Assembly (NCBI RefSeq): GCF_004010195.1 | Contig: NC_057718.1 | Span: forward strand, 73,554,234-73,577,690 | DNA length: 23,457 bases | From: Chiloscyllium plagiosum | Lineage: Eukaryota | Direction of reading: 5' to 3' | Notes under the pieces: generated by a model | What the model was told of the DNA's origin: nothing | The model's input: the letters and a program-made list of their open reading frames with translations, nothing else | The model's database searches: none | Part shown: positions 2,766 through 23,457 of the stretch, piece after piece | How positions within the stretch are numbered: position 1 is the stretch's first letter | How the letters are laid out: each line of letters starts with the position of its first letter | Translations under genes and position numbers: made by a program

Positions 2766-4732
2766 CACGGGTGAGGTACCAGAGGACTGAAGAATTGCTA
2801 ATGTTGTTCCCTTGTTTAAGAAGGGTAGCAGGGATAATCCAGGTAATTACAGACTGGTGAGCCTGACATCAATGGTAGGGAAGCTGCTGGAGAAGATAAA
2901 ACATAGAACATAGAACGTTACAGCACAGTACAGGCTCTTCAGCCCTTAATGTTGCGCCAACCTGTGGAACCAATCTGAAGCTCATCCAATCTACACTATT
3001 CCATTCTTGTCCATATGCCTATCCAATGACTATTTAAATGCCCTTAAAGTTGGTAAGTTTATTACTGTTGCAGGCAGTGCATTCCACATCCCTACTATTC
3101 TCTGAGCAAAGAAACTAACTCTGACATCTGATCTATATCTATCACCCCTCACTTTAAAGATATGTCTCCTCATTCTAGCCATCTCCATCCAAGGAAAAAG
3201 GTTTTCATTGTCCAACCTATCTAACCCTCTGATTATCTTACATGTCTCAATTAAGTCGCCTCTCAACCGTTTTGTGCCTCACGAAAACAGTATCAAGTCC
3301 CTCAGCCTTTCCTCGTAAGACTTTCCCTCCATACCAGGCAACATCCTAGTAAATGTCATCTGTACCCTCTCCTAAGCTTCCACATCCTTCCTTTCATGTG
3401 GTGATCAGATACTGAGGGATAGGATCTATTCCCATTTGGAGAAAAATGGGCTTATCAGTGATAGGCAACATTGTTTTGTGCAGGGAAGGTCATATCTTAC
3501 CAATGTAATAGAATTCTTTGAGGAAGTGACTAAGTTGATTGATGAGGGAAGGGTTGTAGATGTGATATACATGGACTTCAGAAAAGCATTTGATAAGGCT
3601 CCCCATAATAGGCTTATCGAGAAAGTGAAGTCGCATGGGATCCAGGATGTACTAGCTAGATGGATAAAGAACTGCCTAGCCAACAGGTGAGAGAGAGAGA
3701 GAGTAGTAGTGGAAGGGAGTTTCTCAAAATGGAGAACTGTGACCAGGTGTTTCACAGGGATCTGTGCTGGGACTACTCTTGTTTGTGATATACATAAATG
3801 ATCTGGAGGAAGGTATAGGTGGTCTGATTAGCAAATTCGCAGATGACACTAAGCAGATAGTGAAGGGGACCGTCAGACAATGCAGCAGAATATAGCTGGA
3901 TTGGAGAGTTGGGCAGAGAAATGGCAGATGGAGTTCACTCCAAGCAAATGCAAGGTGATGCATTTTGGAAGATTCAATTCAAGAGTGAACTATGCAGTAA
4001 ATGGAAAAGTCCTGGGAAAATTGATGTACAGAGAGATCTGGGTGTTCAGGTCCATTGTTCCCTGAAGGTGGAAATGCATGTCAGTCGAATAGTCAAGAAG
4101 GCATGCGGCATGTTTTCCTTCATCAAACCGGGTATTGAGTACAAGAGTTGAGCAGGTCATGTTACAGTTGCATAAGACTTTGGTTTGGCCACATTTGGAA
4201 TACAGTATAGAGGTCTGGTCACCACATTACCAAAAGGATGTGGATGCTTTGGAAAGGGTTCAGAGGAAGTTCACCAGGAAGTTGCCTGGTATGAAGGGCA
4301 CTAGCTATGAAGAGAGGTTGAGTAGATTAGGATTATTTTCAATAGAAAGACAAAGGTTGAGGACCTGATTGAGGTCTACAAAATCATGAGAGGTGTAGAT
4401 GCAAGAAGCTTTTTCCCAGAGTGGGGACTCATTTACTAAGGGTTATGAGTTCAGGGTGAGTGGGTAAAAGTTTAGGGGAGATGTGCATGGAAGGTTCTTT
4501 ACGCAGAGGGTGGTAGGTGCCTCTAATGCATTACCAGCAGAGGTGGTAAAGGCGGGCACTATAGTGTCATTTAAGATGTATCTAGACAGATACATGAATG
4601 GATAGGGAGCAGAGGGATGCAGAACCTTAGAAAATAGGTGACTGGTTTAGATAGTGGATCTGGATTGGCACAGGCTTGGAGGGCTGAAGGGCCTGCTTCT
4701 GTGCTGAGATTTTCTTTGTTCTTTGTTCTTTG
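2766..4732 (+). mobile_element. CR1 (HER1-like) LINE, 5'-truncated RT and 3' tail, decayed
   Basis: ORF fragments QHCFVQGRSYLTN, VDVIYMDFRKAFDKAPH, KFADDTK (~3833), WSPHYQKDVDALERVQR. (TTCTTTG)n tail 4712-4732. Confidence 0.95.
2899..3406 (-). mobile_element. CR1 3' fragment nested antisense inside the CR1 above
   Basis: ORF 3030-3266 (RGDLIETCKII...FFAQRIVGMWNALP). (CATAGAA)n tail at ~2902-2915. Flanking agata at 2894-2898 and 3407-3411; the host CR1 resumes after it. Confidence 0.9.
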
Positions 4733-5444
4733 ACTAATTAGACAAAATCTTGGCACCTCTTCGGAGTACCTTCTCAGGAGAAAATAGTTAGCAAGCAAGT
4801 AGGATTTTCTCTGAGGAAACCTTATCAATAATGAAAATGAGGTCACAAGAAGGAAAGAGAGAGTGCGTGTGTCATTTTGCAATAGAGAATAGAGAAATAA
4901 CCCACAGTCTTCTGAAATACTCAGAAATCCTGCTCTCAGGATCCAACTTAACAAGTTCTGATTAGTGAGCATCAATCTGTGGAGAAAGTGGAGGGCTGTG
5001 ATGCATAGAGTTGAGTTGAATGGACAAGTTCATATTTGAAAGGTGATGGCTCTGAGGCTACACTTTCACGTATATTGTTCTGTGAAAGAGACCATGCAGT
5101 AGATCCAATGCTTTTTACTGTTCAAGCTGATCTCTTGTGTTGTTAATCACAGTAATATTATCGATAAAAGATGGGGATGAAGTGAATTTGGACTGTTTGT
5201 TTTTCACAATTGCCACACAAAATGTATCTTGCTTCCACTTAGGCATGTGTTGACCTTTACCACCATTATCCTACTTTGGCTGCCCCTATTATTTTATTTA
5301 TTTTATCCCAATAACTTTGCCTATTGTTTCAATATATGAAACTGATCACCGAAAACGCCTGTTACATATCTTTTCCATTTAATGCTCTTTTAAAAGATGT
5401 TCTGGCTCATCCATGAGTTAATATTTCAAACAATTTGGCAGGAA

Positions 5445-5590
5445 GTCTTATAGCCCATGTCTGCCTCTGAGATGGAAGCACTAGGTTCATGATCCAATCT
5501 TGGATTTGATGCCCAAGGATCATGTATTTATACATGCCTAATCAACATACTGCAGATACCAGGCAGTGAGAGAGGAAGATATTTCTAGTC
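5445..5590 (+). mobile_element. Possible decayed tRNA-derived SINE head
   Basis: gcctctgag followed by B-box-like ggttcatgatcc at ~5484-5495; weak resemblance only. Confidence 0.3.
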
Positions 5591-5599
5591 ATCCATATA

Positions 5600-5880
5600 T
5601 GAACAAGGAACAAGACTAGGCCACTTATCCCTTTGATCCTGCTCTGCCATTCAATACAATAATGGTTGATCTGATTTTAACCTCAAATCTACATTGGTGT
5701 ATACTCTCGATAATCTTTCATACCCTTGGTAGTAAAGAAACTGTTACTTCTGTCTAGAAAAAAGTTTAAAGATACTACATCCACTGCCCTTTGATGAGGA
5801 AAGTTCTGCAGATTCTCAGCTCGCTGTCTTAATTGGCACCCCTTATGAAGTGATGGAAAGAAATTGGATTCTCTATCCTC
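5600..5880 (-). mobile_element. Older CR1 3' end fragment
   Basis: Minus-strand translation resembles the CR1 C-terminus (QRAENLQNFPHQRAVDVVSLNFF...TKGMKDY). CR1-type 3' UTR at 5600-5700. Confidence 0.7.
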
Positions 5881-6189
5881 ACTGGCTGTAAAACTCCCCA
5901 ATTGTGGGGATGTTGGCTCAGTTTGCTGAAAGAGTGGTATGGATCATATTAGTAACACATAGTAGAATAATAAAATTGTATTGTAATGGTGCATAGACTG
6001 AAACCAACCCATACTTCTGCATCATGTCACATACTGTAGATAATGAAAAAGAGGTGATTGTTTAACTGTAGGCAGTTGGATATGAACACAAAAGTTGTCA
6101 ATATTCTAAAAGTATATTGTAGCTTTTCCAAGCACTGTCCTAAGGCACAAAAAGGGATTGACATAATAAATTTGCATGTGCGAAATGTA

Positions 6190-6420
6190 ATGCGTGAACA
6201 ATGATGAAAATGCTAAAGTTTAAAGATGTCAGCCAAATTGGAGGTTCTACAAGTAAGTTTGAGAAGCAAAATAAACTCCAAAGAGATATTATTAAGTTGT
6301 CAGAATGGCTGAAAAATTGCATTTGAAGTAATTTTACATTGGTATAGTTTGATAATAAAAATGTGAGCTAGAAAGACCAGAATGATTTATAGAGTCAAGA
6401 TCCCAAACAATTAAGAGCAG
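6190..6420 (+). mobile_element. Highly decayed CR1-like RT fragment
   Basis: MLKFKDVSQIGG...KLQRDIIKLSEWLK resembles KFADDTKIGG...LQRDLDRLSEWA. Confidence 0.5.
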
Positions 6421-6526
6421 TGGATAAATAGGTGAGGCACTGGTGGTAATGTCATTGTACTAAAATCAGAGGTAAAGCTCTTAAAATGGTTCATATCCCA
6501 ACTTGACAGCTGTTGAAATTTGAATT

Positions 6527-6884
6527 TTTTTAAATCATTCACAGGGTGAGGACTTCACTGGCTAGGCCAACATTTATTGCCCTTCCCTAGTTACCCAAAG
6601 GGCAATAAAAGTCAACTACATTGTTGTAGGTCTGGAGTCACATGTAGGCCAGACCAGGGAAGAATGGCAGTTTACTTTCCTAAAGGATATCAGTAAACCA
6701 GATGGATTTTTCCTGACAAGCAACAGTGATTTAATGGTCATTATTAGACTCTTAATTCCATATTTTTATTGTATTCAAATTTCACCATTTGCCATGGCAG
6801 GATTTGAACCTACATCTCCATACCCTTACCTATGTTTCTGGACTAACAGTTCAGCAACAACACCACTAGGCTATTACCTACCCC
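6527..6884 (-). mobile_element. Full-length tRNA-derived SINE sharing head and body with the LINE-B 5' end and tail with the LINE-B 3' end
   Basis: A box tagcctagtgg (6863-6873 rc) and B box ggttcaaatcc (6800-6810 rc). Body 6600-6710 is homologous to 7083-7190; tail 6532-6596 is homologous to 16441-16506. Confidence 0.85.
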
Positions 6885-6940
6885 TAGTTCAGTAAATTAA
6901 ACAAACGATGTGGAATTTAAAGCTAGTCTAATGAAGCCAA

Positions 6941-7056
6941 GGGCTCTTGTCCAAAATGTCGATTCTCCTGCTCCTCAGATGCTGCCTGACCTGCTGTGCT
7001 TTTCCAGCACCACACTCTCAACTCTGATCTCCAGCATCTGCAGTCCTCACTTTCTC
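6941..7056 (+). mobile_element. Short Penelope-like 3' terminal fragment with 13-bp TSD
   Basis: TSD ctaatgaagccaa at 6928-6940 and 7057-7069. Homologous to 19105-19221. Begins inside a decayed hammerhead stem II (gggc tctt gtcc aaaatgtc). Confidence 0.85.
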
Positions 7057-7556
7057 CTAATGAAGCCAATGTCATTTGGCTTAAAAATCCAGTCCCCTTT
7101 AGGGAAGGAAATCCATTGCCGTTACCTACAATGGCCTACATGTAATGCCAAGCCAAGATTATGTGGTTAATTCTTGAATGCTGTCTGAGGTGGTCCAGCG
7201 AGCCATGTTGTTCCATTAAACTGCTATGCAGAATGAGGTCAGCCAGTTGATTTAGGCACTTGAAATAGCAATGGCAAGCCCAGCCTTATCTATCCTGAAA
7301 AGTTTTCCTTCCTAACATCTTTTGCTTGTGCTAAAACTGAGAGAACTGCCTCACAGACTACTCAAGCTATAATGTAACATTGTTCTACCCATTGAATCAT
7401 GTCTTATAATGTGCTAGACTGCACTGTTAACATTCTTGGGTCTGTCCTGCAGACACACCCACTGGAGGTGTTGACATAGTGCTGTACAGTCAGGTGGGAG
7501 TTGCTGCGGGAACTCTCAACAGTGATTCTGGATTCTATGACGTCTCATTTGGTCAA

Positions 7557-7829
7557 ATTAGATTAGATTAGATTACTTCAGCCCAACATGTCCACACCGA
7601 CCCACCAAACCGCAACCCACCCAGACCCATTCCCCTACATTTAACCCCTTCACCTAACACTATGGGTAATTTAGCATGGCCAATTCACCTAACTTGCACA
7701 TTTTTGGATTGTGGGAGGAAACCGGAGCACCCGGAGGAAACCCACACAGACACGGGGAGAATGTGCAAACTCCACACAGAGAGTTGCCTGAGGCGGGAAT
7801 TGAACCCGGGTCTCTGGCGCTGTGAGGCA
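7557..7829 (-). mobile_element. HE1-type SINE, 5'-truncated
   Basis: B box gggttcaattccc (7795-7807 rc). Body ggagtttgcacattctccccgtgtctg...ccggtttcctcccac. (CTAAT)n tail 7557-7575. Confidence 0.9.
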
Positions 7830-8356
7830 AGGAAACCAAGAAACCTCCTACTGATTATCAACCACTGCTCCACCCCCACCACTACTCTCCCATCTCGATG
7901 TCCATTGTCAAGGGCAGACAATAGAATCATGACTGACCAAACTGGCCTTGTCCTGTTAGACTGGGTCTGCACCAGGTCTTAAAGGAACCAACAAGACAAA
8001 AATATGTACTTGACCTCGTCCTCATTAACTGGCACGTTGCAGATGCATGATTCCATGGTAGTATCATTAAAGCAAGTACTGCACAGCCCTTGAGACAATG
8101 TTCCATGTTCACATTTAGGGTACCCTCCATTGTGTTAGTTATAGAGGCCTACAATAGAGAAAAGGCTCTTCAGCCCATAGAGTTTGTACCAGTCAGAAAC
8201 TATATACATGTGTTCTAAGATCGATCTCAAACAAATCTAATAATTCAAGACTGGACATCCAAGAGGCACTATCGACCAGAATAAACATTAGAATTATATT
8301 TAACCACAATCTGTAATCTCATGGCCTGGTATATTCCCCTCTACTATTACATTTTC

Positions 8357-11081
8357 GAAGCTGATGAGGATGTTAGTATCTCAGAGGAGTGCAGTCAGAG
8401 CTAAGCTTCTGGCATCTCAAGTAACTTGACTGCAGGGGGGAGGAATAAAAAAGAATGAGCTGTTATGTTAAGGGATTCTTTAGTCAGGGAGCAGCTCAGC
8501 ATTTCTGTGGCCAAAGACATGAACTCGGTTTGGTGTGTTGCCTCACTGGTGTCAAGGTCAGGGCACCTTGAAAGGCAAGGATAATGAGTTAGAGATTGTG
8601 GTACATGTTTACACCAATGATATGGGCAAAGTAAGCAATGAGGTCCTGTAATAAGAATTCAGGGAGCTAGGCAGTAGTTTAAACCTTGACTTCAATGGTT
8701 GTGATCTCTGGATTACTCCTAGCGCCACATACTAGCAAGTATTGAAATAAGAAAATAGGGCCAATGAATGCATGGCTTATTCCTGGATCATTGGTATCGT
8801 TTTTGTGGAAAGATGGACGTGTACTAACCGAATGGTCTGCACCTGAACCACACTGGGGTAAATTCCTTGCAGATAGATTTGCTCGTGCGGGACTGAGACG
8901 ATTTTAAACTAGTCTGACAGTTGCAGGGGGCGGGGGGCGCACAGAATATTGCTGAAATGAAGACAGTTCATGCTGCAACAAAGGAAGCAAGTCAGAGTGA
9001 GTTCATCTATGTTGAATGTCAGGGAAGTAAGACAAGGCTGGATGATCTTTAAATTAACGCTAGAGTGTAATAGGTAAGACTGATGAGTTCAAAGTGTGGA
9101 TTGACACGAGTGTGATATTGTTGCTATCACAGAAACATTGTTGAGGGAAGGGCACGATTGGCAACTCAACATTCTGGGCTATAGAATCTTTAGGCAAGAC
9201 AGAGGAGGATGTAAAATGGGTGGAGGAGTAACACTATTAATTAAGGAGTAAACTACTGCAATAAGGAGAAATGATATCTTGAAAGGGTCTTCAAATGAGG
9301 TTTTGTGGTTAGAACTTAGGAATGCTAAGGGGAGTGCATTATAGTGCCCCAAAGAGTTGGCAGGAAACAGAGGTGTATAAATGTAATATTTGGGTGTAAT
9401 ACTGGGGAATTTCAACTTTCCTAACATAAATGGTAATAGTTAAGGGTTTAGAAGGGGTGGATTCCTTGAAATGCGTTCAGGAAGTTTTTTAGTATCAATA
9501 TGCAGAATCCCAACAAGGGATGGCACAGTCCTGGATCTGGTTCTGTGGAATGAAACCGTTCAACTTTTCAATGTGGCAATGGGGGATTATTTTAGCGATA
9601 ATGACCGCAATATGGTATGGTTCAAATTTGTTCTGGACAAGGAGAAAAATGGCCTGCAAAAGATGATTTTGGATAGCGAGAAGGCAGATTTTATTAAAAT
9701 AAAGCAGGATCTGGCCAAAGTTGACTGAGAAAAGCTCCTTGTGGGTAAATCTATGATGGCACCAGTCAGAAGCATTCAAAAAAACAAGTGGGGAGAATAC
9801 AGGTCCAATATGTACCCTCTAGGCGGATGTAAAGATGCAATAAGTTCAGGGAAACCAGGATATCTAGGACAATTCAGGACAGGATGAAGAAGGAAAGGGC
9901 TTTTAGCAAGTCCAAAGGGAGCAATTCAATTGAGGCCTCAAAGAATATAGGCAGTGCAAGAGGAACTTAAGAAAGCAATTGGAAGAGCATAAAAGGGGCA
10001 TGATTTATGAATAAGATTAAGGAGAATCCTAAGATATTTCATACATACATTAAAGGGAAGAGGTTAATCAGAGAAAGAATAGGACCCCATTAGGGATGCA
10101 GGCAATAATCTGTGTGAAGCCACAGGATATTGGACGTGAATGCTTCTCTTTGGTTTTCAATGTAGAAAGGGAGAATATAGGTATGGAATTCAGGAAATGG
10201 GACTGAAAGGAACTTGCACAGTTTGACTTAGGAAATGGGGATGTATTGGAAGCTCTGATGGGACTAAAAATGGAAAACTCCCCTGGCCCAGATGAATTGG
10301 ATCCCAAACTGCTGTGGAAGTTGAGGCAGGAAATTGCAGATGCTCTGATGCAAGTTTTTAATTCCTCTCTGGCCAGAGGACTGGAGAACAGCTAATGTGT
10401 TTCCACTTTTTAAGAAAGGTGGCAGAGATGAATCAGGAAATTTACAAACTGGTGAGTCTCATGCTAGTGTTAGGAAAACTATTAAAATTCTGAAGGGAAG
10501 AATTAATTCCCACTCAAAAAGGCACAGATTAACCTTGTCTCAGTCAAATCCATCATGAACTCGGATTTCACCAGTTTCCTCATTTCCCCTCCCCCCACCT
10601 TGTCTCAGTCAAATCCATCAACCAACCCAACCACCCTGTGGCTCAACACTTTAACTCCCCTTCCCACTCCACCAAGGATATGCAGGTCTTTGGACTCCTC
10701 CATCGCCAGACCACAACAACATGACGGTTGGAGGAAGAGCGCCTCATCTTCCACCTAGGAACCCTCCAACCACAAGGGATGAACTCGGATTTCACCAGTT
10801 TCCTCATTTCCCCGCTCCCCACCTTGTCTCAGTCAAATCCATCTCTCAAACAGATTAATTAAGGATAGGCAACATGTCTTTGTCAGAGGGAGGTCATGCC
10901 TAACAAATTTGCTAGAATGTTTGAAAATGTCATCAAGAGTGTGGATGTTGAAAGTTCAGTTGATGTAGTTTATATGAATTTTAGCAAAGCTTTTGACAAG
11001 GTACCATATGGGAGATTGATTGAGAAGGATAAAGCACATGGAATTCAGAGGAATATGGCAAGATGAATCAGAAATTGACTG
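8357..11081 (+). mobile_element. CR1 LINE with ORF1 SGNH/GDSL-esterase remnant and ORF2 APE + N-terminal RT, heavily decayed
   Basis: ORF1-like motifs DSLVR, LVCCLTG, VVHVYTND, VISGLL, GLHLN (8470-8880). APE motifs DIVAITET, GYRIFRQDR...GGGV, PTRDGTVLDLVL. RT motifs SPGPDE (~10279) and VDVVYMNFSKAFDKVP (~10959). Confidence 0.9.
10533..10849 (+). mobile_element. Penelope-like insertion: three 3'-coterminal copies of an endonuclease C-terminal segment, 9-bp TSD
   Basis: Translation NQPNHPVAQHFNSPSHS...LEEERLIFHLGTLQPQGMNSDF resembles the PLE GIY-YIG C-terminus. acagattaa at 10524-10532 and 10850-10858. Confidence 0.85.
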
Positions 11082-11700
11082 GGTGCTGAACATTGTGCAA
11101 TCACTAGGGAATACCCCCACTTTTGAACTTATGATTGAAGAATAGTCATTGATGAAGTAGCTGAAGACAACTGATCCAAGTGCACAACCCTGAGGGACTC
11201 CTGCAGTGATATGTTGAAACTGAGCTGATTGACTTCCATGTTTGGCATCCAACAACTGCAATAATCAATCTTTGTGCTAGTTAAGACTCCAACCAATGGA
11301 AAGTTTTCAACCTGATTCCCGACTCCAGTTTCGCTAGTGCTCTTTTATGCAAAACTTGGCTGAAAAATGCCTTAATGTCAAGGGCATTCACTGACATTAT
11401 CTCTGGAATTTATTTCTTTTGTCTACGTTTGGGCAAGGGATGTAATGAGGTCAGAATCCAAGTGGCCCTCATGGAACAAGCTTCAGCATCATTGAGCAGG
11501 TTATTGCTAAGCAAGCAACACTCAGCGGCACTGTTGACAACCATCTCTATAATTTAAATGATCGAGAATAGATTGATGAGGCAGCAATTAGCAGAACTGG
11601 ACTTTTCACACCTTTTGTCGAGAGGTCAAAGCTATGTGATTTTCTCCATTACCTGAAGATGTAGCTGATTTAGAACAGCTTGACTACAAATGTGGCAAGT
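11082..11700 (-). mobile_element. LINE-B RT fragment
   Basis: ORF 10956-11261 contains ITAGVPQGCALGSVVFSYFIND...DCTMFST. Homologous to ~17330-17870. Confidence 0.8.
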
Positions 11701-12958
11701 TCTGAACAAGCAAAGAACAAAGAATCTCGCAGCACAGGAACACGCCCTTTGGCCCTCCAAGCCTGTACCAATCCATATCCTCTGGCTAAACCTGTCACCT
11801 ATTTTCTAAGAATCTGTATCCCTTTGCTCCCTGCCCATTCATGTATCTGTCTAGATACATCTTAAATGATGCTATCTTTCCTGCCCCTACCACCTCTGCT
11901 AGCAATGCCTTCCAGACACCCATCACCCTCTGCGTGAAGAACTTTCCACACATATTTCCCCTAAATGTTTTCTCTCTCACTTTGAACTCGTGGCTCTTAG
12001 TAATTGAGTCCTCCACTCTGGGGGAAAAGCTGCTTGCTATCCACCTGTCTATGCCTCTCATGATTTTGTAGGCCTCAATCAGGTCCACCCTCAACGTCCT
12101 TCTTTCCAATGAAAATAATCCTAATCTACTCAACATCTCCTCATAGCTTGTACCCTCCGTACCAGGCAACATCCTGGTGAACCTCCTCTGCACTCTCTCC
12201 AAAGTATCCACATCTTTTTGGTAATGCAACCAGAACTTGTACGCAGTATTCCAAATGTGGCCAAACCAAAGTCTTATACAACCCTAACTTGAACTGCCAA
12301 CTCTTGTACCCAATACCCTTGTCCGATGAAGGAAAACATGCCGTGTACCTTCTTGACCACTCTTTTGACCTGCGTTGCCACCTTCAGGGAACAATGGACC
12401 TGAACACCCAAATATCTCTGCACATCAATTTTCCCCAGGACTTTTCCATTTACTACACAATTCGCTCTTGGATTGGATCTTCCAAAATGTATCACTCGCA
12501 TTTGTCCAGGTTGAACTCCATCTGCTTTTTCTCTGCCCAACTCTCCAATCTATCTATATTCTACTGTAATCTCTGACAGTCCCCTTCACTCTCTGCTACT
12601 CCACCGATCCTAGTGTCATCTACAAACTTGCTAATGAGGCAACCTACACCTTCTTCAAATCATTTATGTATATCACAAACAACAGTGGTCCCAGCCCGGA
12701 TCCCTGTGGGACACCACTGGTCACAGGTGTCCATTTTGAGAAGCTCCCTTCCTCTACTACTCTCTGTCTCCTGTTGCCCAACCAGCTGTCTATCCATCTA
12801 GCTAGAACACCCTGGACACCATGCGACTTCACTTTCTTCATCAGCCTACCATGGGGAACCTTATCAAACACCTTACTAAAGTCCATGTATATGACATCTC
12901 CATCCCTTCATCAAGCAACTTTGTTGTGGTTCTGTTCGCCGAGCTGGGAATTTGTGTT

Positions 12959-12998
12959 GCAGATGTTTCATCCCCTGTCTAGGTGACATCCTCAGTGC
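12959..12998 (-). ncRNA. Hammerhead ribozyme motif, CpG-decayed copy (sense to the PLE ORF)
   Basis: Reverse complement reads gca CTGAGGA t gtc a cct agac agg g gat GAAA c atc tgc. It differs from the 14249 copy by two CpG-type transitions. Confidence 0.7.
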
Positions 12999-13228
12999 TT
13001 GGGAGCCTCCTGTGAAGCACTTCTGTGATGTTTCCTCCGGCATTTATAGTGGTTTGTCTCTGCCGCTTCCGGTTGTCAGTTCCAGCTTTCCACTGCAGTG
13101 GCCGGTATATTGGGTCCAGGTCGATGTGCTTGTTAATAGAATCAGTGGATGAGTGCCATGCCTCTAGGAATTCCCTGGCTGTTCTCTGTTTGGCTTGTCC
13201 TATAATAGTAGTGTACACTACGTTGGAT

Positions 13229-14167
13229 TTACTCATGCTGGGTATCGGGTCCTTTGTCCTGGTGAGTTGTTGTCTGAGTGAAATTGCAGGGGTATCCGTT
13301 TTTGGCGAATACATTGTAGAGGTGTTCTTCTTCCTCTTTTTGCAGTTCTGGTGTGCTGCAGTGTGTTGTGGCCCTTTTGAACAGTGTCTTTATGCAACTT
13401 CTTTTGTGTGTGTTGGGGTGGTTGCTTTCGTAGTTCAGGACTTGGTCTGTGTGTGTGGTTTTCCTGTATACCTTTGTGGTGAATTCTCCATTCGGTATTC
13501 TCTGTCCTATCATGTCTAGGAATGGAAGTTGGTTGTCCTTTTCTTCCTCTCCAGTGAATCTGATTCCTGTGAGTGTGGCATTGATGATCCAGTGTGCATT
13601 TTCTATTTCTGTGTTTTTAATTATTACAAAGGTGTCATCTACATATCTGACCCAGAGTTTGGGTTGAATTTGCGCTAAGACTGTTTGTTCCAATCTTTGC
13701 ATTGCCGCTTCTGCTATGAGTCCAGAGATGGGTGAGCCGTTGATTTGTTCATATATTTGGTTGTTGAATGTGAAGTGTGTTGTGAGGCTCCGGTCCAGTA
13801 GTTTGAGTATGCAGTCTTTGTTGATAGGTTCCTCGTCTTGTTGTCTGTTCTGTATGCCCAGCAGGTTGGCTACTGTTTCTCTGGCTAGGGTTTTGTCAAT
13901 AGAGGTGAACAGTGCCGTTACATCGAATGAGACCATAGCTTCTTCCTTGTCTATATGTATATTTCTAATGATGTCCAAGAATTCCTGTGTTGACTGTATA
14001 GAGTGTCTGGATCCGCTGATCAGGTGTTTCAGTTTCTGTTGTAGTTCTTTAGCCAGTTTGTGTGATGGTGTCCCTGGTAGCGATACGATGGGTCTGAGTG
14101 GGATGTCTGGTTTGTGCACTTTAGGTAGTCCATAGAATCTGGGGGTGGTGTTATTTTCAGGTTTCAT
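13229..14167 (-). pseudogene. Penelope-type reverse transcriptase, 312-aa open fragment with internal deletions
   Basis: PRFYGLPKVHK, PLRPIVS, SFDVTALFTSI, WVRYVDDTF, LPFLD, VYRKTTHTDQVLNYESNHP. Motif B shortened (QINGSPIS, lacking the usual TPMG). GIY-YIG core missing downstream. Confidence 0.9.
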
Positions 14168-14248
14168 TCTCTGCAGGTCATTCTCTGTCGGAGGGAACTA
14201 TAAATGCCGGATGAAACATCACAGAAGTGCTTCACAGGAGGCTCCCAA

Positions 14249-14288
14249 GCACTGAGGATGTCACCTAGACAGGGGACGAAACGTCTGC
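14249..14288 (+). ncRNA. Minimal type I hammerhead ribozyme, intact core
   Basis: Stem I gca/tgc; CTGAGGA 14252-14258; extra T; stem II gtc-a-cct(agac)agg-g-gac; GAAA 14278-14281; palindromic ACGT stem III; GUC cleavage triplet ending at 14285. Confidence 0.85.
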
Positions 14289-14604
14289 AACACAAATTCC
14301 CAGCTCGGCGAACAGAACCACAACAACAAGCACCCGAGCTACAAATCTTCTCACAAACTTTGATCTACCAATTTGTTACCTCTTCAAAGAATTCTATAAG
14401 ACATAACCTTCCCTTCTGGATTAAGTGTCTTCAGTAAAATTGCCAGACTGTTGTCAGAAGCCACCATCTTTGCAGTATTACCTGGCTTTAGCAGTTCCTT
14501 GATGAAATGTGGAGTTAATCAAATTGACTGAAGACTGGCAACTATGGAATAGGGCAAGTTGGATTATTCATTTGTCACTTCTGATGGATATAAATGCTTC
14601 AACC

Positions 14605-14715
14605 TTGTTTGATTTGATTTATTGTAGTCATGCGTACCTAAGTACAGTGAAAAGCTTTGTTTGCGAGCAATACAGGCAGATCATAGAAAGGAAGGACATA
14701 CAAGTCAAAGTGAGG
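14605..14715 (-). mobile_element. Probable 3' UTR fragment of another LINE family
   Basis: (TTTGA)n-like tail followed by tttatt (AATAAA on the minus strand); clade not assignable. Confidence 0.35.
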
Positions 14716-15187: not shown

Positions 15188-16280
15188 TAGAGTCATAGTG
15201 TCATAGAGATGTACAGCATGGAAACAGACCCTTCAGTCCAACCGTCCATCCCGACCAGATATCCCAACCCACCTGCCAGCACCCAGCCCATATCCCTCCA
15301 AACCCTCTGTGTGAAAAAGTTGCCCCTTAGGTCTCTTTTATATCTTTCCCCTCTCACCCTAAACCTATGCCCTCTAGTTCTGGACTCCCTGACCCCAGGG
15401 AAAACACTTTGCCTATTTACCCTATCCATGCCCCTCATGATTTCGTAAACCTCGATAAAGTCACCCCTCAACCTCCGACGCTCCAGGGAAAACAGTCCCA
15501 GCCTGTTCAGCCTCTCTCTACAGCTCAAATCCTCTAACCTGGCAAAATCCTTGTAAATCTTTTCTGAACCCTTTCAAGTTTCACAACATCTTTCCGATAG
15601 GAAGGAGACCAGAATTGCACACAATATTCCAACAGTGACCTAACCAATGTCCTGTACAGCTGCAACATGACCTCCCAACTCCTGTACTCAATACTCTGAT
15701 CAATAAAGGAAAGCATACCAAATGCCTCCTTCACTATCCTATCTATTTGCAACTCCACTTTCAAGGAGCTATGAACATGCATTCTAGGATCTCTTTGTTC
15801 AGCAACACTCCCTAGGACCTTACCATTAAGTGTATAAATCCTGCTAAGATTTGCATTTCCAAAATGCAGCATATCTCATTTATCTGAATTAAACTCCATC
15901 TGCCACTTCTCAGCCCATTGGCCCATCTGATCAAGATCCTGTTGTAATCTGAGGTAACCTTCTTCGCTGTCCAGTACACCTCCAATTTTGGTGTCATCTG
16001 CAAACTTACTAACTATACCTCTTATGCTTACATCCAAATCATTTATGTAAATGACAAAAAGTACAGGACCCAGCACCTTGTGGTACTCCACTGGTCACAG
16101 GCCTCCAGTCTGAAAAACAACCCTCCACCACCACCACCCTCTGTCTTCTACCTTTGAGCCAGTTCTGTATCCAATAGCTAGTTCTCCCTGTATTCCGTGA
16201 GATCTAACCTTGCTAACCAGTGTCCCATAGGGAACCTCGTCGAACGCCTTACTGAAGTCCATATACATCACATCTACTGG
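15188..16280 (-). mobile_element. CR1 LINE 3' fragment, relatively young
   Basis: [46 protein letters not shown]. (GAGTCATA)-type tail at 15188-15210. Confidence 0.95.
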
Positions 16281-16284
16281 CTAC

Positions 16285-16430
16285 TGTTTATTTCTCAACC
16301 AACATCACTAAAATAGAATATCTGAGCAGTTACTGCTGTTGTGCAACCTTGCTTTGAACAAATTGGTTACCTCATTTCACACACTACAACGGTATGAATG
16401 CACTTAAATCATATAGGGACTTCCTGAGAG
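16285..16430 (+). mobile_element. Decayed DeuSINE-like (SacSINE1/AmnSINE1-like) 3' fragment
   Basis: ctcaaccaacatcactaaaa...tgctgttgtg...cttgct...aaattgg...ctacaac matches my recollection of this SINE body; not verified by search. Confidence 0.5.
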
Positions 16431-17092
16431 AGATTATTTTAAATTCATTCATGGGATGTTGACGTTGTCAGATAGACCAACATGTATTGACCATCCCTAA
16501 TTGCCCTGGAGAAGGTGATGATGAGCCACCTTTTTGAACTGCTGCATTCTTGATGTGTAGTGACACCAACAGGTCTGTTAGTAAGGAAGATTTTTATCCA
16601 GCAACAGTCCAGTAACGGTATTCCAGCTCCAAGTCAGGATGGTGTTTGACTTGGAGGCAAACTTACAGATGGTGGTACCCCCGTGCATCTACTGCCCTGT
16701 TCTTCTAGATAGTTGAGGTCATGGACTTGGAAGGTGCTATCAGGCGAGCCTTGGTGAGTTACTAGAATGAATCTTGTAAATGTTGTACATTGCTGCCACT
16801 GTGTGATAGTGCTTTGTCCTGGATGGTGTCAAGTTTCTTGACTGTGTTGAAGCTGCACTCATCCAGGCTAGTGGAGAGCACATTCCTGAATTCTGCCATG
16901 TGGACAGACTTTGGGGAAACTGGAGTTTAGTTAATTGCTGCAGAATTCCTAACTGCTGACCTGCTCTTGTCATTACAGTATTGATATGGCTGATCCAGTT
17001 CAGTTCTTGATCAGTGGTAACCCAGAATGTTGACACTGGAGGATTTAGTGGTAGCAATGCCATTGAGCATAACGGAGTGATGGTTAGATTCT

Positions 17093-17206
17093 CCGGGTGC
17101 TGGCAGGTGGGACTAGATTGATTTGGGATATCTGGTCAGCATGGATGTGTTGGCCCAAAGGGTCTGTTTCCATGCTGTACATTTCTATGACTTTATGACT
17201 CTATGA
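17093..17206 (+). mobile_element. CR1 3' UTR/tail fragment inserted in LINE-B
   Basis: Near reverse complement of 20940-21050; ends in (TATGACTC)n. Confidence 0.9.
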
Positions 17207-17539
17207 TCAATGCCTGGCACTTGTGCAGTGTGAATGTTACTTACCAATTATCAGCCCAAGTCTGGATGTTGTCCAAGTTTAGCTGCATATGAACGTGGAC
17301 TACTTCATTATCTGAATTGTCATAAGTGGTGCTGAACAATTCAGTGAGCATCTTCTATTCTGAGTTCATTATGGAAGGAAGGTTATTGATAAATCAACCA
17401 AACTTTGTAGGGCATACCACACTAAGTTGAGGAACACCTGCCAACCACAGTCATTGTCTCTGCTAGTTGAAATTGTATTGAGCACAGAGAGTTTTTGCCT
17501 GACTCTGATTGAGTTCAGTTTGCTAGGGCTCCTTGATAT

Positions 17540-17672
17540 TCGGAAGAAGGGTCAGTGGACCTGAACTGTTAACTTTGCTTTCTCTCCACAGATGTTGCCA
17601 GACCTGCTGAATTTTCCTAGCACTTTTTGTTTTTGTTTCTGATTTTCAGCCTCTGCAGTACTTTGTTTTTTT
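17540..17672 (+). mobile_element. Short Penelope-like 3' terminal fragment with 11-bp TSD and decayed hammerhead
   Basis: TSD ctccttgatat at 17529-17539 and 17673-17683. Starts tcggaagaagggtcagtggacctgaactgttaac (decayed core around a ggtc/gacc stem). Confidence 0.8.
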
Positions 17673-18371
17673 CTCCTTGATATCATACTTGATGATATGC
17701 TGGCTTGATGCTTGGAAGGACTGTTGACAATCTTTGACACCAATTAGCTGATAGGACAATCATTGGCTAGGCTGGATCTGTCCTGATTTTTGTGCACAAG
17801 ACATATCTGAGCATTTTGTCACATTGTTGGGTAGATGCTAGTGTTGTAGCTCTACTAGTATAGCTTGGTGAGTGACTCAGCTGATTCTTTAATAGAGCAC
17901 AAGTCTTCAATGCTTTTGCCGGATTTTTGTCAGAGTCCATAGGCTTTGTAGTATCCAGTGCATTCAGCCATTTTTGATATCAAATGAAGTGAATCAGCTT
18001 GGCTGCGACCTGGCATCTTTCCTTCTAGTGGTCTTATGTAGAAACCAAGGTAGATCATTCACTCAATACGTTTGGCTGAAAATGGTTTCAAATACTTAAT
18101 ACGTTTGCACTGTTGTGGTTGGTCCACCATAATTGAGGTATAGGATATTTGCGAAACCTCCACTTTTTAGTTGCTTGATTGTCCAATATAGTTCATGACC
18201 AGATGTGGCAGGACTCAGAGCTTAAATCTGATCCATTTAATTATATGATTACTCAGCCTTGTCTATTGCTTGCTGCTTCCACTGTTTGACAAGTAAACAG
18301 TATTGTAGCTTCACTGGTTTAGAATGTCTGGTTCTGCCTCTACAGACCCTCATGAACTTTTTAGTTTGAGT

Positions 18372-19078
18372 TGTTATGGAGGTGTAAGGGGTACTGTACC
18401 TTTAAGAAAGTTGAAATTTAGCAAGGACTTAGACAAGCACACAGGGTGCTGAAGAATTTATGATGTAACTTTTGGTTCAGAACAGCTAGCACTGGCTAGG
18501 TTGCCTGGAGACAAAAACAAATTCAAATTTGGCCAATTAGTTTAAATTATACCCCAAAATACCAACCTCCAATCAAGTTTGAATTTAAGATATTAACAAT
18601 ATTAAAGCCAATGAAATGATCTGATGCTTTGGGGTATAAGACTGGGAAGAATTAAACACTTGAAGGGAGAACTGTCAAGCCACCAGCATGTACAGACTGC
18701 CCAACATACGACTTTCTTAAAGGTACCTTTATTTATCAATAGCCTGTGAAACAGAAATCCCTAAGAAGAAGAAAATCTACAGAGGGAGATACCGTGGGAA
18801 GATTCAACAGCTGCCTGGTTTTGAAATTTGAGTTTTTGCTAAATCTTACTCAGGGGTTTTATTGGACTTGTATTATAGAAGGGAAAGTAGGTTAGAGGAA
18901 GGAGTTGTGAATAGTTATTAGTTAATTATCCTCTGTTGTACTTTAAGTAATAAAGTTGTTAATTTTTACCTTAAATAGTTCTTGGCTTCTTGAATTTTAA
19001 TAGATTACCACACAGGGTAAATTTTTTCTGTGTTGCTGGTTTAAGTTAGCAGGGGAGGGTTTACCCTGTGTCATAACA
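18372..19078 (+). mobile_element. Solo LTR (707 bp), probably Gypsy-type
   Basis: Inverted termini TGTTATG...CATAACA. 4-bp flanks gagt (18368-18371) / aagt (19230-19233, after the duplicated terminus). CCAAT at 18533, 18569 and 18608; TATAAG at 18635; AATAAA at 18949. Confidence 0.85.
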
Positions 19079-19080
19079 AA

Positions 19081-19221
19081 CACTCTCTGCTCATTCCTGA
19101 GGAAGGGCATGTGCCCGAAACGTCGAATCTCCTTTTCCCTAGATGCTGTCTGACCTGCTGTGCTGTTCCAGCAATAAAGTTTCAGCTTTGATCTCCAGCG
19201 TCTGCAGACCTCACTTTCTCC
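19081..19221 (+). mobile_element. Short Penelope-like 3' terminal fragment with 10-bp TSD
   Basis: TSD tcataacaaa at 19071-19080 and 19222-19231. Homologous to 6941-7056 with the same 3' end (cctcactttctc). Internal AATAAA. Confidence 0.88.
19093..19128 (+). ncRNA. Minimal type I hammerhead ribozyme, intact core
   Basis: Stem I attc/gaat; CTGAGGA 19097-19103; extra A; stem II gggc(atgt)gccc; GAAA 19117-19120; palindromic ACGT stem III; GUC ending at 19124. Confidence 0.87.
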
Positions 19222-19414
19222 TCATAACAAAGTCTATCCGTTTAACATAGTGGTGATAGTGTAATTAATCCTTAGTTTGAAGAGGAGTCTTTGTCGCAAC
19301 GAGGACTTTGTGGTGGTCACAAAGGTAGATTGGTCAGGACGATCAAGAGCTACAAGTTCCTAAAAATTGAAGTCCTACATACAGAGTACATTTTGTACCC
19401 TTTCCATCCTCAAA

Positions 19415-19697
19415 GGTGGTTCGTGGTTAGCACTGCTACCTCACAGCACCAGGAACCTGGATTCAATTCTATCCTCTGGCAACTGTTTGTTTGTATTTTC
19501 ACATTCTCCTCATGTCTGCATGGATTTCGTCTGGGTGCTCTGGTTTCCTCCCACAGTCCAAAGAAGTGTAGGCAAGGTAGAATAGCCATGGGAAATGCAG
19601 GGTTGTAGGGATAGGGTGGGATGCTCTTCAGAGCGCCAGTGTCGACTTGATGGTCTGAATGGTCTATTTCCACACTGGAGGGATTCTGTGATTCATG
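19415..19697 (+). mobile_element. HE1-type SINE
   Basis: Head gtggttagcactgctacctcacagcaccagg, B-box-like ggattcaattc, body ggtttcctcccacagtccaaaga, CR1-like tail tttccacactggagggattctgtgatt. Confidence 0.88.
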
Positions 19698-20698
19698 TTT
19701 CCTCCAAGTGTGTTGTTTAACATGGAGAAGTACAGATTCTTCAGCCAAGGCGGAGCAGTTTAGGTGGTAATGAACAGGAGATTTCCTTGTCCATCTATGA
19801 CCCACTGTCATGAGATTTCATGCCAGAGTCTATGTTGAGGACTCCAAGGACAATTCCTTTGTGAGTATATATCACTGTGATGCCACTTGAAATAGAACTG
19901 CCCTGCCAGTGGGACAGTGTCTGACAGGGATGATTCTGAGTATGATTATGCCAGGCTGTTACCTGAATAGTCTGCAGGACAGTTCTCCCAATCAATTTTA
20001 ACGTAAGTCCCCAGATGGTAGTAGGAAGCTTTTCCAAGGTCAACTTGATTATGTGTTGTCATTTCTGATGCATAGTCTGTTGTCAGGTGGTCCACCTGGT
20101 TTCATTCCCTTCATTACAACTGAAATAGTTTGACATGACTGGGCGGCTTGCCAGACCATTACACAGATAGTTATGAGTCAACCACATTGATCAATGTGGT
20201 TCACTATTTTTTAATGACAACTATTTTGACCACTCTCGAGTTTACTGGTATACATCAGCTCATTGACGAACTTTCCAGAACCTCTACAATTTCATCCTTT
20301 CTTTATATCAGAATCTTTAGATTTGTTTTGGTCACAGTTCCACCTTTAGCTAAACAAACTACTTCAGTACTTTCATTTCATGTATTGTGTATGAGGTCAG
20401 AATTAGTCTTTTCCCCAATAAATATTATTTTAGTTATTAATAAAATGAAGTGTTTGTTACATAACTTTGCCAACTTCTCTTTCCCTTCCAACATCATTAT
20501 TCTTTTTTCCCCCAAGGTTCAACTGCATGTTCAATAAATCCTTTTACTAACAAATGCAAATAATATCTTGCTAATCTTAATTTGTCTCAGTCTCACATAC
20601 TATCTCTTAATATCTTGTCCATCTCAAATTTAATTCTATCGTAGTATTCCTACGGCGTGTGGACACAGGCCATTCAGCCCGTCAAGTCCACACTGACA

Positions 20699-20939
20699 CT
20701 CCAAAGAGCAACCGACCATGTCCTATCCCTGTCACCCTGTATTTCCCGAGGCTAACCCATCTAGCCTACATATCCTACATATCAAGGGTAATTTAGCATG
20801 GCTAATCCACCTTCACATCTCCAAAGAGCAACCGACCATGTCCTATCCCTGTCACCCTGTATTTCCCGAGGCTAACCCATCTAGCCTACATATCCATAGA
20901 TTTCAAGGGTAATTTAGCATGGCTAATCCACCTTCACAT
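20699..20939 (+). repeat. Tandem duplication, 120/121-bp units
   Basis: 20699-20818 and 20819-20939 are identical except a short patch (tacata vs atagatt). Confidence 0.95.
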
Positions 20940-21560
20940 AGAGTCATAGAATCCTAGAGATGTACAGCATAGAAACAGACCCTTCGGTCCAACCTGTCCA
21001 TGCCGACCAGATATCCCAACCCAATCTAGTCCCACCTGCCAGCACCCGGCCCATATCCCTCCAAACCCTTCCTATGCCTCTTAAATGTTGCAATTGTACC
21101 AGCCTCCACCACATTCTCTGGCAGCTCATTCCATACACATACCACCCTCTGTGTGAAAAAGTTGCCCCTTAGGTCTCTTTTATATATTTCCCCTCTCACC
21201 CTAAACCTATGCCCTCTAGTTCTGGACTCCCCAACCCCAGGGAAAAGACTTTGTCTATTTATCCTAAGCTTGCCCCTCATAATTTTGTAAACCTCTAAAG
21301 CAAATCTTAGCAGGACTTATACACTTAATGGTAAGGTCCTAGGGAGTGTTGCTGAACAAAGAGACCTTGGAGTGCAGGTTCATAGCTCCTTGAAAGTGGA
21401 GTCGCAGGTAGATAGGATAGTGAAGAAGGCATTTGGTATGCTTTCCTTTATTGGTCAGAGTACTGAGTACAGGAGTTGGGAGGTCATGTTGCGGCTGTAC
21501 AGGACATTGGTTAGGCCACTGTTGGAATATTGCGTGCAATTCTGGTCTCCTTCCTATTGG
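20940..21560. mobile_element. CR1 insertion with 5' inversion
   Basis: 20940-21297 is the CR1 3' end on the minus strand; 21298-21560 is an upstream CR1 segment on the plus strand (LEYCVQFWSPSY). Confidence 0.88.
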
Positions 21561-21753: not shown

Positions 21754-22054
21754 CATGGTGGCTCAGTGGTTAGCACTGCTGTCTCACTGCACCAGGGACC
21801 TGGGTTTAATTCTACCCTGAGTTGACTGTCTGTGGGGAGTTTGCACACTCCCCCCGTGCCTGGGTGGGTTTCCTCCGTGAGTCTAAAGATGTGTGGGTAA
21901 CGTAGACTGGCCATGCTAAATTGCCCATAGTCTTCAGAGATATGCAGACTAGGTGGATTAGAAATGGGAAATGGAGGGTTACAGAGATAGGGGATGCTCA
22001 TCAGAGGGTTGTTGCAGACTCGATGGGCTGAATAGCCTGATTCCACATTCTAGG
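21754..22054 (+). mobile_element. HE1-type SINE, near full length
   Basis: A box tggctcagtgg, B-box-like gggtttaattc, body ggagtttgcacactcccccgtg...ggccatgctaaattgccc. Confidence 0.9.
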
Positions 22055-22469
22055 CAACCTGAAATTGGATATTGTTTTTCATAGTACATCAATACAAACC
22101 TGGAACTTCTGCCAGGACTGTTCAGGATTTGGGATATGCAGCAGAGTGGACTTTCTCACACCTACAAATACCACAGAAAAACTTTAGGAAAAACAGACAG
22201 AAAATAAAGAGGAAGCATGACTGGGGCTTCAAATGAAGCTAAATTAGACAACAATACCATAGTCTATGCAGCTAAGCCCCTTCTCCTCCACCACCCACCA
22301 ACTATTCAGGCCAGATTCCAGCCTCATAGCAATTTGGAATCTTAGCTTATTACTGGAAACTATAGTGTCTGTCCACATTTTCAGCTCAGAGCCAATACTG
22401 TGCTCACCATTGCTTGAAGCAACATATTTTCACTTGGACCTTGGATCCTGGCTGAAGCAGAAATGGATC

Positions 22470-23457
22470 AATGAAAAGGAGAATATTGTAGAGGAGAAGA
22501 ATGAGGTACGAGATATTAGACTAGAAAGCATCGAGGTTGGTTACGCACAGGTGTTACCAATTCAAGAAGGAGTGAAAGTAGACAAGTCCCCTGGGCCGGA
22601 TGGGATTTATCCGAGGATTCTCTGGGAAGCTAGGGAGGAGATAGCAGTGCCTTTGGCTTTGATATTTGAGTCGTCATTGTCTACAGGTTTAGTACCTGAG
22701 GACTGGAGGATTGCAAATGTTGTGCCCTTGTTGAAGAAGGGCAGCTGAGATGACCCAGGTAATTACAGACCAGTGAGCCTTACTTCTGCTGTAGGAAGGT
22801 TTTGGAAAGGATTGTGAGAGATAAGATTTATAATCATCTAGCAAGCAACAATTTGATTTCAGATAGTCAACATGGTTTCGTCAAGGGCAGGTCATGTCTC
22901 TCAAACCTCATTGAGTTTTTTGAGAAGGTGACCAAGCATGTAGATGAGGGTAGGGCAGTTGACGTGGTATACTTGGACTTCAGTAAAGCCTTTGATAACG
23001 TTCCACATGGTAGGCTGATGGAGAAAATACAGAGGCATGGAATTGAAGGTGATTTAGCAGTTTGGAATACAAACTGGCTTTCTGGAAGGAGCCAGCGAGT
23101 GGTGGTTGATGGCAAACATCAGTCTGGAGTCCAGTAACTAGTGGTGTGGCACAAGGATCTGTTTTGGGACCACTGCTGTTTGTCATTTTTATAAATGGCT
23201 TAGACGCAGGCATAAGTGGATGGATTAGTAAATTTGCAGACGACACTAAAGTCGGTGGAGTAGTGGACAGTTTGGAAGAATGTCACAGGTTGCAGGGGGA
23301 CTTGGATAAACTGCAGAATTGGGCTGAGAGGTGACAAATGGAGTTCAATGCAGCTAAATGTGAGTTAATGCACTTTGGGAAGAATAACAGGATGGCAGAG
23401 TACTTGGTCAATGGAAAGATTCTTGTTAGTGTGGATGTGCAGAGGGATCTTGGAGTC
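22470..23457 (+). mobile_element. CR1 LINE RT region, decayed, runs off the window end
   Basis: [65 protein letters not shown]; contains in-frame stops. Confidence 0.95.

Follow-up and report, generated by a model that had tools for sequence, protein, structure and literature searches.

Where the bodies of SINEs come from is an open question. Ruminant BovB carries SINE pieces at its 5′ end, a point of background that our literature search did not confirm. In a Repbase-wide comparison, as far as its account of SINE bodies extends, LINE 5′ parts in these bodies came from RTE and Vingi elements only, and conserved bodies stood without a LINE source (PMC5786205). The bipartite SINEs described there (Bov-tA, WALLSI2 and CoeSINE4) combine a body from the 5′ region of an RTE or Vingi LINE with a tail from the 3′ end of the same LINE. 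In Lepidoptera, Persaeus joins the 5′ UTR and ORF start of a CR1-group LINE, its partner Zenon, to the ORF end and 3′ UTR; it is classed as a SIDE, a term that in the description given denotes elements with neither a small-RNA head nor a Pol III promoter (PMC6740152).

The window analyzed here, a 23,457-nt stretch of Chiloscyllium plagiosum, is repeat-dense vertebrate DNA. At 6527–6884, on the minus strand, it contains a 358-bp SINE-like element made of head, body and tail, which lies antisense in the head region of copy 1 of a LINE that we refer to as LINE-B. The whole SINE, head included, maps to the two ends of this one LINE, which we take to be of the CR1 group. We consider it probable that the SINE arose from LINE-B by an internal deletion, which joined the head, the 5′ UTR and about eight first codons to the last two to three codons, the stop codon and the 3′ UTR.

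The tRNA-like head of the SINE (6790–6884) carries an A box at 6873–6863 and a B box at 6810–6800, each with no mismatch to the consensus boxes. Rfam returned a weak tRNA match for 6797–6873 (15.5 bits, E 8.6), ARAGORN predicted no tRNA in the head, and neither the head alone nor the tail alone folds better than shuffled sequence. The body (6598–6789) is homologous to the LINE-B 5′ region and closes with a triplet at 6621–6619 that corresponds to the candidate ATG of the LINE, followed by about eight codons. The tail (6527–6596) corresponds to the last 7 coding bases of LINE-B, its stop codon and roughly 60 nt of 3′ UTR, and the element has an A-rich end. Short, non-coding and ending in a 3′ tail common to LINE-B, the 358-bp element has the structural features of a tRNA-derived SINE (SINE2). 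An earlier note on this DNA had described a head-body-tail element inserted antisense into a LINE-B head, a description borne out by the perfect boxes and by a match to the host LINE that none of 500 shuffles equaled. If insertion of the SINE left a target duplication, no more than a degenerate remnant of 5–6 nt survives, possibly at 6885–6889. The nesting, which dates copies and not families, shows that the SINE copy came later than the LINE copy with a head that it interrupts. Because the window holds this single copy, we infer, rather than observe there, that the element belongs to a SINE family.

Copy 1 of LINE-B (plus strand) starts with a tRNA-like head at 6431–6526, in which the B box (6488–6498) has one mismatch and the A box is decayed (two to three mismatches). 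Beyond the SINE, the body continues at 6885–6938, is split by a second, unrelated insertion at 6939–7067 (129 bp, counting one of the two units of a 12-nt direct repeat at 6928–6939 and 7057–7068), and resumes at 7068–7298, where a candidate ATG (7161) opens a leader that keeps one reading frame, with three decay stops in it, up to the first endonuclease motif. A decayed endonuclease region and linker follow at 7299–8365 in pieces (7299–7558, 7830–8150 and 8215–8365) with other repeats between them, and the copy is 3′-truncated; a match to protein P0152 lies at 8264–8401. The LINE-B 5′ end would consist of a tRNA-derived head with A and B boxes and a body of about 170 nt. The distance from the head start to the first endonuclease motif in copy 1 is 376 nt, and because endonuclease-like sequence lies so close to its start, LINE-B would have no space for an ORF1.

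Copy 2 (16433–20200, minus strand) starts in the last part of the shared body, with a candidate ATG at 20187, and runs through the endonuclease and reverse transcriptase (RT) to a stop codon at 16499–16497 and the tail. It comprises about 2419 LINE bases in five colinear pieces with insertions between them; the head is absent and the body match is short. Two fragments on the minus strand complete the set, one from the RT (11080–11700; Pfam RVT_1, E 6e-4), which supplied the query for the protein search, and one from the linker (14410–14605; P0152, 48% over 48 aa). The two copies agree through the endonuclease region at 588 of 912 positions with lenient gaps (0/2000 shuffles), and their body-end motif is matched by 9 of 500 shuffles. 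A scan with a pattern designed from these same body-end sites found five matches against 0.44 expected, three of them at the predicted places. The junctions, together with the colinear order of linker, RT, stop codon and tail, tie the head to the endonuclease in copy 1 and the body end to the tail in copy 2.

Both copies lie among other repeats. A family of about 125 bp (6939–7067, 19103–19225, 17571–17638 and 2348–2499) accounts for three insertions into LINE-B copies and is presumably similar to Penelope-type ends. At 12921–14326, a 322-aa open RT frame (13229–14197, minus strand; RVT_1, E 3e-7) is flanked by two 130-bp repeats that are 97.7% identical, an arrangement that we take to be a young Penelope-like element. 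Copy 2 is interrupted at 18380–19080 by an insertion of about 700 bp whose ends look TG...CA-like by eye; of several inverted repeats inside it, one has 16-nt arms that pair perfectly, and the insertion is a candidate solo LTR or non-autonomous DNA element. Directly after copy 1, at 8366–11080 on the plus strand, lies a CR1-type LINE with an endonuclease and an ORF1 that appears esterase-like by eye; more CR1 pieces occupy 3330–4725, 11711–12924, 15302–16277 and 22300–23457. An integrase-core fragment at 416–826 on the plus strand (Pfam rve_3, E 0.004) is a decayed piece of an LTR retrotransposon.

The RT domain of LINE-B is of the non-LTR type (Pfam RVT_1). For the endonuclease, one motif block matched the endonuclease of the window's CR1 (1/1000 shuffles), and the other three of four pieces were not significant. 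The open endonuclease frame had no Pfam match and drew only unrelated weak matches in Atlas, and the PDB search returned LINE-1 ORF2p alone, at E 0.68. LINE-B is distinct from the window's CR1 with the esterase ORF1 (27–35% vs 47–50% to P0151), and its assignment to the CR1 group is our presumption from motifs compared by eye. In the best explanation, which as a whole, with the origin of the SINE by deletion, we hold with somewhat better than even confidence, LINE-B would be an old CR1-group LINE with one ORF, present across sharks, with a putative APE endonuclease and an RT.

We then compared the SINE with both LINE ends. With the two insertions removed from copy 1, the SINE head and body aligned to the host LINE with a score of 99 (shuffles 23.9 ± 3.7; 0/500 reached 99) and an overall 5′ identity of 69–71%. 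By segment, 48 of 70 aligned bases are identical in the head (1/500 shuffles), 40 of 45 in the first part of the body, with 19 gap columns (1/500), and 55 of 77 in the second part (0/500). The earlier note had placed the head and body match at 6431–6525 and 7083–7190; these intervals do match, but the list was incomplete, as the homology also runs through 6890–6938 and 7068–7082. The end of the SINE body matches copy 2 as well (13 of 14 bases; 5/2000 shuffles). At the other end, the tail aligned to 16433–16506 (minus strand) of copy 2 with 54 of 73 bases identical (z 20; 0/500 shuffles), in agreement with the proposal that 6532–6596 corresponds to the LINE-B 3′ terminus at 16441–16506. Identities at the 5′ and 3′ ends are thus alike (69–74%). 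A split-point scan detected no SINE-private segment longer than about 10 nt between the LINE-5′ and LINE-3′ matches. With three homologies beyond chance, the claim that every part of the SINE is shared with LINE-B is supported. The 5′ part is homologous to the 5′ end of the partner LINE and the 3′ part to its 3′ end, as in a SIDE.

The earlier note had allowed that the head and body might be no closer to LINE-B than to other tRNA-SINEs, and that the tail might come from a different LINE. Within the window, neither was the case. The best match of the SINE head among four other candidate SINE heads was a 15-column B-box alignment (7/500 shuffles), in a comparison for which the control coordinates, chosen by eye, are possibly off; and none of four CR1 3′ regions matched the tail significantly, which leaves it as a LINE-B tail. 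A window-wide scan found this tail twice only, in the SINE and in copy 2.

SacSINE1, a Deu-SINE and an initial candidate label for this element, was compared by published motifs, not by the SacSINE1 consensus, and was rejected. Two Deu motifs taken from a published alignment had no match in the SINE at up to three mismatches, and one chance-level match elsewhere. After the head, no Meta domain (up to three mismatches) or UCON3 domain was found, and the published V-SINE primer motif differed from the SINE at 10 of 20 positions. With a body lacking Deu, Meta, UCON3 and V motifs, the SINE is not SacSINE1. For CORE, of which the 7-mer alone was used, the best match (one mismatch) falls at the body-tail join and not after the head. 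Pieces of a possible other shark SINE occur at 16280–16432 and 5430–5570 (both plus strand); they may be of Deu type, and the Deu motif scans gave no match there.

The best body-tail join lies at 6597/6596, with a score that is flat (81–83) over about 15 nt, from about 6607 to 6593. On its 5′ side, the join falls about 25 nt past an ATG whose frame, in copy 1 (7161) as in copy 2 (20187), is that of the first endonuclease motif; this agreement has a chance probability of about 1 in 9 for two copies, is interrupted by decay stops and requires compensating indels in copy 2. On its 3′ side, it falls 7 nt upstream of the LINE stop codon at 16499–16497. The earlier note had pointed to gccc/gggc microhomology near this join; the two motifs are reverse complements and form an inverted repeat, not direct microhomology. 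Direct microhomology at the join amounts to at most 1–3 imperfect bases and was rejected, as was a more extended match of the body end to the LINE sequence that precedes the tail (627/2000 and 1827/2000 shuffles). A splicing origin was likewise rejected: a splice-acceptor-like pyrimidine run and AG precede the LINE 3′ breakpoint (16506–16520, minus strand), but no matching donor GT was seen at the corresponding 5′ position of either LINE copy.

The inverted repeat forms a hairpin across the join (6570–6612, minus strand), with arms at 6612–6598 and 6584–6570 and the join in its loop. Its 15-nt arms form 14 Watson-Crick pairs of 15 (0/300 shuffles; z −3.0), and it is stronger in the SINE than in either LINE copy. 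Between LINE sequences, the two breakpoint regions of copy 2 pair with each other (−19.2 kcal/mol, P 0.012), copy 1 pairs weakly with the copy 2 tail, at P 0.059 and in 35th place among 312 windows, and no pairing was found between copy 1 and the SINE tail (P 0.25). These tests were made after the hairpin had been seen, and we therefore treat the pairing as a lead.

For the origin of the SINE, we propose three steps. A LINE lineage would first have gained a tRNA-derived head through a template switch or a SINE fusion. The ORF would then have been lost in one event, possibly by the RT jumping over looped-out RNA in which the start-codon region was paired with the tail. The short product could, by established SINE biology, have retrotransposed in trans at once, since its Pol III promoter and a tail recognized by the LINE's RT were in place from the outset. 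The earlier note had offered two alternatives, deletion of the ORF from the LINE or capture of the SINE's 5′ end by the LINE. Deletion is favored, and the either/or was probably too narrow, because capture of a head by the LINE is needed before the deletion. Deletion after head capture is the most likely order and direction, as read from one SINE copy and two decayed LINE copies, because the 5′ match stops where the 3′ match starts and the join connects the ORF start to the ORF end. Furthermore, a template switch at a random point in a SINE would seldom yield a gapless junction, and the anatomy is the same as in the CR1-derived SIDE Persaeus, as described in PMC6740152. Several findings count against a deletion: the comparison involves a single SINE and a single LINE copy with a head, copy 2 being headless with a short body match and an ATG frame that needs compensating indels; the join is flat over about 15 nt; copy 1 pairs weakly with one tail and not with the other; the head and tail alone fold no better than shuffled sequence; the host A box is decayed; and the endonuclease fragment has no Pfam match and only unrelated weak Atlas matches, with three of four endonuclease pieces not significant against CR1. 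Inversion of the host's own 5′ end was excluded, because the antisense piece bears a tail and has diverged by about 30%.

The same homologies could have arisen in the opposite direction. In that case the SINE would be older, a tRNA SINE of the usual kind that ends in a LINE-B tail. A template switch close to where body and tail meet would have brought its head and body into LINE-B, which would have taken its ATG from the body, with no deletion involved. tRNA heads derive from small RNAs and template switching exchanges SINE modules, according to the passages on module exchange in PMC5499810 and PMC4824008; the SINE boxes are perfect where the host A box is decayed, and the hairpin could have acted as a stall point favoring a switch exactly there. 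Box decay is, however, also explained by the host copy simply being older, and to leave no SINE-private sequence the switch must have fallen within about 10–15 nt of the tail start. In both LINE copies the reading frame of the final body codons continues into the endonuclease. The body has no match to any widespread SINE domain that was tested, so that there is no sign of a body predating the LINE. We consider a SINE-first origin possible but unlikely.

Deletion from LINE-B, our preferred origin, could also have occurred without founding a family, leaving the 358-bp element as a one-off LINE-B copy shortened either in the course of a single insertion or afterwards at the DNA level. The single copy in 23 kb would fit, as would the lack of outside DNA copies in prokaryote, viral and metagenome collections, where shark DNA is not expected. 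Yet the intact A and B boxes, the near-perfect join hairpin and the A-rich end resemble a selected unit, and we regard a one-off event as improbable. Least probable of all is that the head and body at 6431–7185 are a second SINE lying, by chance or by targeted LINE insertion, before a 5′-truncated LINE of a headless family: the full head is present in copy 1 only and the region is densely nested with repeats, but copy 2 has the same junction between body end and endonuclease, the sequence past the body is unlike the tail in both LINE copies (994/2000 and 1660/2000 shuffles), and a LINE inserted into a SINE should have left the SINE tail behind, yet the window has only the two tails.

A more far-reaching version of the deletion origin is that LINE-B itself is driven by its own tRNA-derived Pol III promoter and that its start-codon region pairs with its stop and tail region, so that one template jump would yield a finished SINE. 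We regard this combination as speculative and rather unlikely. Runs of four or more T are Pol III stops. On the coding strand, such runs number 8 in 4205 LINE-B bases (10 pieces with bounds set by eye) and 35 in 6879 CR1 bases (5 pieces), a difference with P 0.005; LINE-B has fewer than base shuffles (P 0.012), and against dinucleotide shuffles P is 0.10. This scarcity is no more than suggestive of Pol III transcription of LINE-B. In the account given in PMC10886601, LINEs count as Pol II transcripts. Whether a coding LINE can run on a Pol III promoter is thus a second, testable question raised by this locus.

To place LINE-B outside the window, its RT fragment (11076–11264, minus strand) was searched against 1.84 billion proteins. 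Six of the ten matches looked up were shark-named (four Rhincodon typus, one Heterodontus, one Mustelus) and four were unnamed; follow-up searches added relatives from Heptranchias, Scyliorhinus and Pristiophorus. Shark relatives are 47–57% identical to LINE-B pieces. Judged from such matches, LINE-B appears to be spread across shark orders, and for that reason the family matters for the repeat annotation of shark genomes. The protein searches recovered no full-length LINE-B protein, and the C-terminal frame as a query gave none among 62 candidates. No match to exact patterns was found in viral, genome or metagenome contigs, and protein-guided scans of outside contigs gave 5, 80 and 99 pattern matches, none of them confirmed. 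In sequencing runs, 20 of 24 rows contain part of 5800–8400, with no RNA run among the matches listed. Several shark gene models (proteins P0033 and P0153–P0157) hold pieces of the LINE-B ORF as internal or terminal exons, probably as annotation artefacts or through exonisation.

The literature search found no description of a tRNA-headed shark LINE, of this SINE-LINE pair or of this route to a SINE, and the window motifs are absent from the main texts and from the supplement of PMC5786205; the family may be in Repbase or Dfam. Among described shark elements, the V-SINE HE1 and its partner LINE HER1/CR1 form a SINE-LINE pair of sharks and rays (PMC3747384, from its account of the pair), and the window contains both a V-type element and CR1 copies. 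The V-SINE-like family lies at 7559–7829, 19415–19674, 20657–20940 and 21757–22047; its copy at 7559–7829 matches the published V-SINE primer at 19 of 20 positions and has a TTAGA microsatellite at its end. HE1 differs from the 358-bp SINE in body and tail, as the latter lacks the V motif and has a tail without a match to CR1 3′ regions. SacSINE1 and LmeSINE1, Deu-SINEs with an L2 tail, resemble it in being tRNA-headed, in their link to cartilaginous fishes and in their LINE-derived tail (PMC5499810). However, SacSINE1 is 463 bp long (PMC2746220), contains a Deu domain and, in the comparison presented, shares only its tail with L2-2_CM (PMC5499810). For LINE-B, the hagfish element CR1-7_EBu is similar by eye only, in its RT motifs and C-terminal codons; its consensus, as printed, has no tRNA-like head, and its partner SINEs are of Meta type (PMC7245038).

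The closest parallels remain the bipartite SINEs and Persaeus. In Bov-tA, WALLSI2 and CoeSINE4, as presented in PMC5786205, the LINE is headless and the tRNA head was added after the deletion, whereas the shark LINE is, on our assignment, of the CR1 group and bears the head itself. Confirmed at the family level, this would amount to a one-step route from LINE to SINE. Persaeus, in the description given in PMC6740152, has no tRNA homology, no Pol III promoter and a variable central region, whereas the shark SINE has a head with A and B boxes and no private center. The presence of these boxes sets the shark element apart from a SIDE in the strict sense; we would describe it as SIDE-like in build, with the addition of a Pol III promoter predicted from its boxes.
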